From IMG/VR virus record IMGVR_UViG_2778261268_000002: DNA of 64,000 nt, one strand, 5' to 3'. The stretch is from a virus (taxonomy: Duplodnaviria > Heunggongvirae > Uroviricota > Caudoviricetes). The notes under the pieces were generated by a model, which searched no databases, was not told where the DNA came from, and saw only the letters and a program-made list of their open reading frames with translations. The translations under genes were made by a program, and so were the position numbers. Within the stretch, counting starts at the first letter, position 1, and each line of letters begins with the position of its first letter. Positions 2,056 through 2,142 of this stretch are shown here, piece by piece.

Positions 2056-2142
2056 GGAGAGTAGGGAGCATGGTGCTCAAACGGTCTTGAAAACCGTCCC
2101 ATTGCGCAAGCGATGATGGTTCGATTCCATTACTCTCCGCCA
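2056..2142 (+). tRNA. atypical class II tRNA-like element (Ser-type, anticodon TGA)
   Basis: Perfect 7-bp acceptor GGAGAGT/ACTCTCC plus G and CCA; perfect anticodon stem ACGGT/ACCGT with loop CTTGAAA; T-arm GATGG-TTCGATT-CCATT; 17-nt variable arm; D-arm unusually short. Confidence 0.45.

Follow-up and report, generated by a model that had tools for sequence, protein, structure and literature searches.

A probable serine tRNA gene of 8/4 architecture in the ban operon of a P1-like phage-plasmid

What is encoded by the tRNA-like element at positions 2056 to 2142 of the IMG/VR virus record IMGVR_UViG_2778261268_000002? The 64,000-nucleotide (nt) stretch of Caudoviricetes DNA that was analysed, referred to below as the window, is not P1 itself but a P1-like phage-plasmid carrying a P7/D6-type segment at the position of this element. 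The original prediction, made from the letters alone, recognized there a tRNA-like gene of class II with the anticodon TGA, and proposed that it might be a functional phage serine tRNA, a pseudo-tRNA, or a tRNA-like processing signal. The gene call itself was confirmed, as ARAGORN reported tRNA-Ser(tga) in the window with coordinates of exactly 2056-2142 (87 nt, class II, anticodon UGA; GGAGAGTAGGGAGCATGGTGCTCAAACGGTCTTGAAAACCGTCCCATTGCGCAAGCGATGATGGTTCGATTCCATTACTCTCCGCCA). The top Rfam family for the element was the tRNA-Sec covariance model RF01852, with which it scored 45.1 bits (E 5e-8 in a 401-nt permissive search; cut-off 47) and was aligned as a long acceptor stem followed by a T stem of 4 base pairs (bp). 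Judged by this E-value and by the many homologues, the resemblance of the element to tRNA is far above chance. Weaker matches in the permissive search (sX4, E 0.085; snoR114, mir-223, and a plastid untranslated region, each with E >1) were set aside as chance or tRNA-like resemblance. Overall, it appears that 2056-2142 is probably a functional, phage-borne serine tRNA(UGA) of the (8/4) structural class, and such a tRNA would read UCA and probably other UCN codons by wobble. Read 5' to 3', its parts are GGAGAGTA-GG-GAGC-ATGGT-GCTC-AA-ACGGT-CTTGAAA-ACCGT-CC-CATTGC-GCAA-GCGATG-ATGG-TTCGATT-CCAT-TACTCTCC-G-CCA. The corresponding features, some of them supported by a 49-sequence alignment (A3) used for formal pair counts, are as follows.

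2056..2142, plus strand: tRNA-Ser(UGA) gene (ARAGORN; Rfam tRNA-Sec match; homologues annotated as tRNA-Ser in D6, rV5-like, T5, and other phages)
2056..2063, plus strand: acceptor stem, 5' strand, 8 nt (GGAGAGTA), predicted to pair with 2131-2138
2066..2078, plus strand: compact D-arm, 13 nt, with a 4-bp stem GAGC/GCTC and a 5-nt loop ATGGT that keeps the conserved GG (A3)
2081..2097, plus strand: anticodon arm, with a 5-bp stem ACGGT/ACCGT and the loop CTTGAAA; anticodon TGA at 2088-2090 (sequence, ARAGORN)
2100..2115, plus strand: variable arm, 16 nt, with a 6-bp stem CATTGC/GCGATG and the loop GCAA, closed by G2115 (A3 covariation)
2116..2130, plus strand: T arm, with a 4-bp stem ATGG/CCAT and the loop TTCGATT (A3)
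2131..2138, plus strand: acceptor stem, 3' strand, 8 nt (TACTCTCC), in which T2131 is the predicted partner of A2063
2139..2142, plus strand: discriminator G73 and encoded CCA (sequence)

The central structural question is whether U76 (T2131) pairs with A8, giving an acceptor stem of eight pairs and a T stem of four (8/4), or with G60 (G2115), giving the standard seven and five (7/5). A first scan of IMG/VR with the pattern ATGG...CTTGAAA...GGTTCRAWTCC returned 120 loci, and the IMG/VR loci together with five GenBank sequences provided 83 unique phage tRNA-Ser(UGA) sequences, all with an acceptor stem of seven perfect pairs. These 83 sequences fell cleanly into two groups, 46 in which position 8 is not U and 37 in which it is. 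Positions 8 and 76 were able to pair in every member of the non-U8 group (A-U in 30, G-C in 11, and C-G in 1, making 42 Watson-Crick pairs, with G.U in the remaining 4), a result matched by 0 of 100000 permutations; in the U8 group the same positions were mismatched in 28 of 37. The rival fifth T-stem pair, 60:76, was G.U in 29 and mismatched in 8 of the 46 non-U8 sequences, and was Watson-Crick in 30 of the 37 U8 sequences. The formal counts in A3 agreed: the eighth acceptor pair was AU in 30, GC in 11, GU in 4, UA in 2, CG in 1, and UG in 1, was never unpaired, and had changes on both sides in 15, and the rival pair was GU in 29, GC in 6, AU in 3, UA in 1, and unpaired in 10, with a two-sided change in only 1. 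The base at position 60, lying 5' of the T stem, closed a variable-arm stem of 3 bp or more in 38 of the 49 sequences (CG 24, UA 9, UG 3, GC 1, AU 1), and did so in 10 of 34 U8 (7/5) tRNAs, in which that stem never exceeded 4 bp. Within the A8-U76 subgroup to which the window gene belongs, base 60 was C or A in four loci (L019, L035, L054, and L063), in each case pairing with the 5' base of the variable arm. Nearest-neighbour energies calculated for explicit cloverleafs of the window gene were -32.6 kcal/mol for 8/4 and -29.2 kcal/mol for 7/5. Explicit cloverleafs were used in place of the unconstrained minimum-free-energy fold of the 87 nt, which was not a cloverleaf (-33.6 kcal/mol, z = -3.2) and was uninformative for a tRNA. 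Together, these data point to an acceptor stem of eight pairs and a T stem of four, which would keep the 12-pair acceptor/T helix of a normal tRNA; the base at the normal T-stem position 49 would instead close the 6-bp variable-arm stem, and position 8 would no longer be free.

The claim that the acceptor, anticodon, and T arms fold perfectly and that CCA is encoded was borne out by the sequence. The acceptor stem is perfect over seven pairs, or eight when A8-U76 is counted, and in A3 all eight acceptor pairs form in 49 of 49 sequences, each of the eight with changes on both sides. The anticodon stem has five perfect pairs in the window, all five of which covary in A3, and the next position outward, A.C in the window, does not form a Watson-Crick pair in relatives. 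The discriminator was G in 39 and U in 7 of the 46 non-U8 sequences. The D-loop has 5 nt in the window and 4-6 nt in relatives, and the covarying D stem has only 4 bp; all four of its pairs show two-sided changes in A3, with 89.7% of cells paired. A possible fifth D-stem pair, A15-U19, is found in the window and in copies from rV5-like phages (Vequintavirus) but is not conserved. The original prediction had called the D-arm abnormally short and the variable arm long. The lengths stand, at 13 and 16 nt, but the word abnormal does not: the P1-like (P7, D6, Kpn1825), rV5-like, T4-like and T5-like Klebsiella, and Pseudomonas phage copies all share A8, a short D-loop with TGG, and a G followed by the 4-bp T stem and a T, and this comparison suggests that the short D-arm is a conserved signature of the (8/4) tRNA-Ser and not a mark of decay. 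The original prediction had included neither the pairing of position 8 with the base following the T stem, on which the 8/4 fold depends, nor the existing annotation of the gene in D6 and D6-like plasmids. The T-loop TTCGATT was found in 43 of 46 non-U8 sequences versus 3 of 37 U8 sequences. As a side observation, T-loop position 59 separates the two architectures, with UUCGAUU in 43 of 46 non-U8 sequences and UUCGAAU or UUCAAAU in 34 of 37 U8 sequences.

Is a gene of this shape likely to function in translation? The window gene differs at 10 positions from its counterpart in a Klebsiella P1-like phage, and none of the 10 differences breaks a pair: they comprise three compensatory double changes (5:79, 6:78, and 12:22), a single replacement of A-U by G.U, and three substitutions located in loops or linkers. 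In a second scan of IMG/VR the anticodon was left free and the anchors were GGAGNNTAG, ATGG, and the T-loop TTCGATT. Among the 38 unique sequences recovered, the class II members typed by ARAGORN carried serine anticodons only (UGA 28, AGA 1, CGA 1), and two further sequences that ARAGORN did not call had the same CTTGAAA loop. Seryl-tRNA synthetase (SerRS) identity is conferred by the long variable arm, G73, G1-C72, G2-C71, and A3-U70, all of which are present in 2056-2142. Consistent with function in this family, the GenBank record of the T5 homologue, tRNA-Ser1(UGA), notes that an anticodon swap turned it into an effective amber suppressor. Furthermore, Mukai et al. (2017, PMC5389517) showed that 8/4 allo-tRNAs fold, undergo processing and serylation, and are employed by the ribosomes of E. 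coli.

The pattern of A8 with a short D-loop, together with the tRNA-Sec match, pointed to the class described in that work. According to its sections on these molecules, a search for tRNA-Sec had uncovered tRNAs with a 12-bp acceptor branch split 8/4 and not 7/5, and a serine member of the class was reported from bacteriophages and proteobacteria (PMC5389517). As that tRNA-Ser is portrayed there (Mukai 2017, PMC5389517), the window gene resembles it in its 8-bp acceptor and 4-bp T stems, its small tRNA-Sec-like D-loop, its long variable arm, its G73 (the class having G73 or U73), its serine anticodon, and its near-threshold similarity to tRNA-Sec (RF01852, 45.1 bits vs 47). It is unlike the allo-tRNAs in having a 5-bp anticodon stem, a longer stem being stated in the same sections for allo-tRNAs and selC* tRNAs generally, and in having a D-arm with a 4-bp stem and a 5-nt loop in place of the long stem and tetraloop given for the allo-tRNA group (PMC5389517). 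A serine anticodon separates the (8/4) tRNA-Ser from the recoding allo-tRNAs; it is UGA in the window and UGA, AGA, or CGA in relatives. The phages named in the main text of Mukai et al. are metagenomic and alpha-proteobacterial, not P1-like, T5, or rV5-like coliphages.

Comparison with better-known tRNAs places the window gene more closely. T5 tRNA-Ser1(UGA) (NC_005859, T5t08) is alike in A8, a 4-bp D stem, a short D-loop with GG, the G.ATGG/CCAT.U arrangement around the T arm, and the anticodon loop CUUGAAA; it differs in its length of 90 nt, its discriminator U, its variable arm, its T-loop UUCGACU, and its residence in a lytic phage. Its score of 33.1 bits with the general Rfam tRNA model RF00005 barely exceeded the cut-off (L135 6846-6935, minus strand), and T5 tRNA-Ser(GCU) scored 60.5 bits. 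A further T5 gene, tRNA-Ser2(GGA) (L135 6943-7036), went unreported by RF00005 at the gathering threshold. The tRNA-Ser of rV5-like phages has 89% identity to the window gene, folds in the same way, and is followed by the same flank of about 60 nt; at 91 nt it is longer, with an additional base in the D-loop and an extended variable-arm stem, and it sits in a larger lytic-phage cluster comprising Arg, Tyr, Ser, an odd tRNA-like gene, Thr, Met, and Pro. The odd gene, which adjoins the tRNA-Ser, is 99 nt long (L004 890-988, L006 889-987), is assigned a 4-base anticodon (atcc) by ARAGORN, scores 37.5 bits with RF00005 in its L004 copy, and may be a frameshift-type or otherwise unusual tRNA. Canonical class II tRNA-Ser (T4; E. 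coli serT) shares with the window gene the long variable arm, G73, the GGA start of the acceptor stem, the CUUGAAA loop, and the expected charging enzyme and codons read, but has U8, a 7/5 helix, a 10-nt D-loop (in the T4 sequence), and a good score with the general tRNA model. The window gene departs from canonical 7/5 features in having A at position 8, a D-loop of 5 nt vs 8-11, and a fifth T-stem pair that would be G.U without covariation. T4 tRNA-Ser was ruled out as an experimentally proven relative by its canonical D-arm and U8, T5 tRNA-Ser1 being the relevant one. Bacterial tRNA-Sec (RF01852) has an 8-bp acceptor stem, a small D-loop, and a long variable arm in common with the window gene, but its 8/5 helix (13 bp), 6-bp D stem, 6-bp anticodon stem, and anticodon UCA are all absent from it. 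The GGAGNNTAG / ATGG / TTCGATT signature was also encountered outside tRNA-Ser, in two 82-nt Tyr(GUA) tRNAs from the second IMG/VR scan and in a class I tRNA of 71-72 nt with A8 (e.g. GGAGTATAGCATCAATGGTAGATGCGCAGGGTCGCGCCCTGTGTCCTTGGTTCGATTCCAAGTGCTCCG), called Ala(CGC) by ARAGORN and present in 17 IMG/VR contigs; the non-U8 design may extend beyond tRNA-Ser in phages.

How widespread is the gene? Homologues with 73-99% identity were found in 336 phage records and in 338 PLSDB plasmids, the latter assigned to Escherichia (311), Salmonella (17), and Shigella (9). At the same locus, P7 has a copy with 98.9% identity where nothing is annotated, D6 has a copy with 97.7% identity that is annotated as tRNA-Ser, and Kpn1825, the Klebsiella P1-like phage, has a copy in the same place with 88.5% identity. 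At position 26 the window gene reads A and the P7 and D6 copies read G, and the downstream genes differ, encoding an SPFH/Band 7 protein in the window and tciA/tciB-like products in P7/D6. D6-like Salmonella plasmids have been described as carrying four tRNA genes, Asn, Thr, Ser, and Met (PMC6799933). The records of P7, D6, and D6-like plasmids make no mention of an 8/4 fold. More distant copies, mostly annotated as tRNA-Ser, occur in rV5-like phages (89%, 91 nt), in T4-like and T5-like Klebsiella phages, and in a Pseudomonas phage (anticodon AGA). The Asn-Thr tRNA pair that precedes the gene was found in 489 PLSDB plasmids at full coverage and in 670 at any coverage, and because 338 PLSDB plasmids carry the tRNA-Ser, the four-tRNA layout is common in natural P1-like plasmids and laboratory P1 is a variant without the gene. 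The original prediction had given only three tRNAs for P1, which is correct for the P1 records.

The similarity to rV5-like phages extends beyond the gene itself, into the following feature.

2166..2225, plus strand: 3' flank of about 60 nt with ~88% identity to the spacer after tRNA-Ser in rV5-like phages (vs L004 about 812-870)

This shared flank suggests that the tRNA module has a common origin with that of the rV5-like phages. An open reading frame (ORF) that overlaps it, 2177-2389, is not preserved in rV5-like L004, where the ATG is AAG and there is a 1-nt indel. In the P1-like phage vB_EcoM-Ro157c2YLVW an extra tRNA-Tyr(GUA) lies between tRNA-Asn and tRNA-Thr (L133 420-506), with 92% identity to the rV5-type tRNA-Tyr (L004 500-586). 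Taken with the shared tRNA-Ser flank, this implies that the P1-like tRNA cluster is variable and exchanges modules with lytic coliphages (Vequintavirus).

The tRNA-Ser locus belongs to the tRNA cluster of the ban operon of the P1-like phage-plasmid, whose other relevant features are listed here.

653..680, no strand assigned: C1 operators (Op72a/b) overlapping the ban promoters, ~1.4 kilobases (kb) upstream of tRNA-Ser and serving its strand (one exact and one 2-mismatch consensus match)
1339..1492, plus strand: tRNA-Asn(GUU) and tRNA-Thr(UGU), upstream members of the cluster (ARAGORN, Rfam)
2024..2042, plus strand: 5' leader hairpin GTCGG...CCGAC, followed by CACAAT at 2046-2051, a possible processing element (compensatory conservation)
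3478..3553, plus strand: CAU-anticodon tRNA, tRNA-Ile2 in the P1 annotation, downstream member of the cluster (ARAGORN, Rfam, P1 record)

ARAGORN places tRNA-Asn at 1339-1414 and tRNA-Thr at 1417-1492. The 653-680 region is 95% identical to the annotated Pban/Oban of P1, as is the leader up to tRNA-Asn to the corresponding P1 sequence (95%), and 653-680 is the likely promoter of the tRNA cluster. A scan of 1000-4000 for sigma-70 consensus promoters found none, and no terminator was found between the tRNAs, which fits read-through from Pban without proving it. Given the conserved C1 operators and Pban and the lack of a promoter or terminator between the tRNAs, tRNA-Ser is most simply placed in the C1-repressed ban transcript. 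The C1 operator consensus, at up to 3 mismatches, had 11 further matches across 11073-50127, with ~0.35 expected by chance per whole window, and this spread fits a P1-type immunity network. The leader hairpin before tRNA-Ser is GCCGG/CCGGC in P7/D6 and CCAGA/TCTGG in Kpn1825, so that its changes are compensatory. Another such hairpin lies 4 nt before tRNA-Asn, and none is evident before the CAU tRNA. A leader of the Klebsiella type (hairpin plus CACAAY) also occurs at 1587-1615 of the window with no tRNA after it (loci L003 and L005 compared), which suggests modular tRNA cassettes or a processing element.

Codon use offers a reason why the cluster might be kept. Codons were counted in 47 long ORFs of the window (1-64000) and in 34 long ORFs from 50 kb of E. 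coli K-12, with the following results.

UCA (Ser), per thousand codons: window 12.5; E. coli K-12 sample 5.3 (2.4-fold)
UCA share of Ser codons: window 20%; E. coli K-12 sample 11%
ACA share of Thr codons: window 24%; E. coli K-12 sample 10%
AUA share of Ile codons (Ile2): window 18%; E. coli K-12 sample 4%
AAU share of Asn codons: window 50%; E. coli K-12 sample 35%

The over-use of UCA, ACA, AUA, and AAU means that all four phage tRNAs serve over-used codons, the classical codon-supply explanation. In the mechanism proposed here the gene, positioned as it is in the C1-repressed ban operon, would be transcribed upon derepression of the prophage; RNase P and 3' trimming would release an 87-nt RNA with its CCA already encoded; the host SerRS would charge it by way of the long variable arm, G73, and G1-C72/G2-C71/A3-U70, elements that are observed in the gene; and the resulting tRNA-Ser would top up the decoding of UCA, which the phage over-uses.

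Other features surround the gene in the cluster. The small ORFs flanking tRNA-Ser (1717-1857, 2177-2389, and 1551-1982 on the minus strand) had no match in Pfam. Further downstream, at the site of P1 tciA-tciC, 2623-3450 encodes the SPFH/Band 7 domain protein (Pfam E 1e-30); this region has close DNA relatives in Stx-converting prophages and phage P88, and a small membrane-like ORF, 2406-2642, precedes it. The spacers of the tRNA cluster also contain a 26-nt direct repeat (AGTGCTCTTACCATTGCGGTGAATGC) in three copies, 1544-1569, 1938-1963, and 2238-2263, with 69-85% identity to the reference copy 1938-1963. One frame per copy reads as Cys-rich C-S-[YQ]-[HR]-C-[GD]-E; copies 1 and 2 are without an obvious start codon, and copy 3 lies inside the 70-amino-acid ORF 2177-2389, which has no Pfam match. 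The second copy doubles as the 3' arm of an inverted repeat of 22 nt (1860-1881 / 1936-1957).

Several observations weigh against the conclusion that 2056-2142 is a functional tRNA-Ser of the (8/4) class. The window gene alone permits both A8-U76 (8/4) and G60.U76 (7/5), and the choice of 8/4 rests on family covariation and an energy difference of 3.4 kcal/mol. The first scan forced the CTTGAAA anticodon loop, and the members of A3 were picked partly by position 8, so the 46/46 count is the unbiased figure. C11:G24, a minor SerRS identity element in E. coli, is absent from 2056-2142. In the D6 copy the D stem contains a C.U mismatch, and according to the D6 annotators tRNAscan-SE assigned this copy no isotype; one annotation pipeline flagged a T5-like Klebsiella phage copy as a pseudogene. 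P1 and RCS47 have three tRNAs only and no trace of the tRNA-Ser, and the gene is dispensable since both do without it. Finally, the predictors disagree: ARAGORN calls a tRNA-Ser, and RF00005 leaves 2056-2142 unreported at its gathering cut-off of 29 bits, the kind of sub-threshold score that the original prediction had named as speaking against a tRNA. RF00005 gave 65-75 bits to the other three tRNAs of the window, was likewise silent at gathering on the P7, rV5-like, Kpn1825, and Pyxpy02 copies, and gave 32-35 bits to three relatives, most ordinary tRNAs scoring 45-80 bits. We attribute this disagreement to the 8/4 architecture.

Could the gene instead be a functional tRNA-Ser with a standard 7/5 cloverleaf, in which A8 is unpaired, a G49.U65 wobble closes a 5-bp T stem, and the short D-arm is tolerated? 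The wobble (G60.U76 in gene numbering) can form in the window, ARAGORN reports a standard tRNA, and 29 of the 46 non-U8 relatives could form this G.U as well, but across the family the base that follows the T stem covaries with position 8 (in four kinds of Watson-Crick pair and with no unpaired case) and not with position 60 (10 of 49 unpaired, one double change), the covariation partner of position 60 is the 5' base of the variable-arm stem, and this cloverleaf is less stable than the 8/4 one by 3.4 kcal/mol. The canonical tRNA tertiary pair U8-A14 would also be abolished by a base other than U at position 8, and overall we consider the standard fold quite improbable. That the element is a pseudo-tRNA, a decaying remnant of an rV5-like tRNA module lying passively in the ban operon and unused in translation, is very doubtful. 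It would accord with the ~88-89% identity to rV5-like phages over the tRNA and its 3' flank of ~60 nt, as expected of a single transfer followed by drift, and with the low RF00005 score, the D6 mismatch, the absence of the gene from P1, and the pseudogene label of one relative. Decay is nevertheless hard to reconcile with stems that are all intact, with intact SerRS elements and CCA, with differences from the Klebsiella P1-like copy that are compensatory or in loops (6 of the 10 forming three compensatory pairs, none breaking one), with the retention of the same odd architecture and abundant covariation across very distant phages, and with anticodons that vary among serine ones only and a T5 homologue that is reported to function. 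A tRNA-like processing signal, at which RNase P would segment the long ban transcript with no role in decoding, is extremely improbable: the element does lie in a polycistronic operon between small ORFs and is preceded by a conserved hairpin, but a mimic needs neither a 7-nt serine anticodon loop nor a SerRS-type variable arm, G73, and CCA, all of which are conserved, and true tRNAs in operons are cut by RNase P anyway, so that such a role would be additional and not alternative. The probability of a tRNA-Sec, or of a recoding allo-tRNA inserting serine at non-serine codons, is next to nil. The top Rfam match is indeed tRNA-Sec, at 45.1 bits, and allo-tRNAs share the 8/4 fold, but the anticodon is UGA (serine codon UCA) and not UCA (stop codon UGA), the acceptor/T helix has 12 bp vs 13 bp, the score lies under the cut-off of 47, and no recoding follows from a serine anticodon on a tRNA of serine identity; the tRNA-Sec reading was rejected on anticodon and helix length. 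Thus, of the three possibilities originally put forward, the functional serine tRNA is favoured by the family covariation, the structure-preserving substitutions, and the exclusively serine anticodons, and neither the pseudo-tRNA nor the processing signal fits the data well.

A different kind of alternative concerns the purpose of the gene. Its main role might be counter-defence, the altered body (8/4 helix, no U8, compact D-arm) escaping nucleases that deplete host tRNA-Ser, although we regard this as unlikely. In E. coli, the HNH nuclease activated by a type I-A retron (FORC82) depletes the host of all four of its tRNA-Ser species, and most of the differences between T5 and host tRNAs lie near the D-loop (PMC12475279), both of which would favour such a role. 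The 8/4 tRNA-Ser also recurs in many unrelated lineages of coliphages and Klebsiella phages, and some P1-like phages have gained the rV5-type tRNA-Tyr, tRNA-Tyr being a reported target of retron Ec78 (cited in PMC12475279). On the other hand, T5 equipped with all of its tRNAs, the 8/4-type tRNA-Ser(UGA) among them, failed to escape FORC82, and T5 tRNA-Ser(GCU) was cleaved (PMC12475279). AGY codons lie beyond the reach of a lone UGA isoacceptor, which therefore cannot stand in for every serine tRNA, and the match to codon usage suffices as an explanation. Moreover, the anticodon stem-loop CUUGAAA is presumably the same as in host tRNA-Ser(UGA), and a nuclease specific for that loop would still cut the phage tRNA. 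It is similarly unlikely, though conceivable, that the 8/4 helix, the loss of U8, and the compact D-arm are together an adaptation that makes the molecule a poor substrate for host or competitor factors acting on the body of serine tRNA, for which the HNH nuclease of the type I-A retron and s4U8-dependent stress responses could be candidates. If true, this would explain why one odd-shaped isoacceptor recurs in P1-, T5-, rV5-, and T4-like enterobacterial phages.

Neither the gene, which is already annotated in D6 and D6-like plasmids, nor the structural class, known from 2017 onwards, is new in itself. The new element is the link of the D6-type gene to the 8/4 class, extended here to P7, T5, and rV5-like phages, and the explanation that this link provides for the under-scoring of the family by tRNA predictors. 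A practical consequence is a correction to annotation, since the gene is missing from the annotation of P7 and of many rV5-like records, and a relative has been labelled a pseudogene by at least one pipeline. Scores for the class are too low with models trained on 7/5 tRNAs, RF00005 giving from under 29 to 35 bits. The window gene is most likely an otherwise ordinary codon-supply tRNA that has been under-annotated, and its recognition places a non-canonical tRNA class, earlier reported mainly from metagenomes, in the tractable E. coli phages P7, D6, T5, and rV5, which offer a convenient system in which to ask why phages keep an 8/4 serine tRNA.

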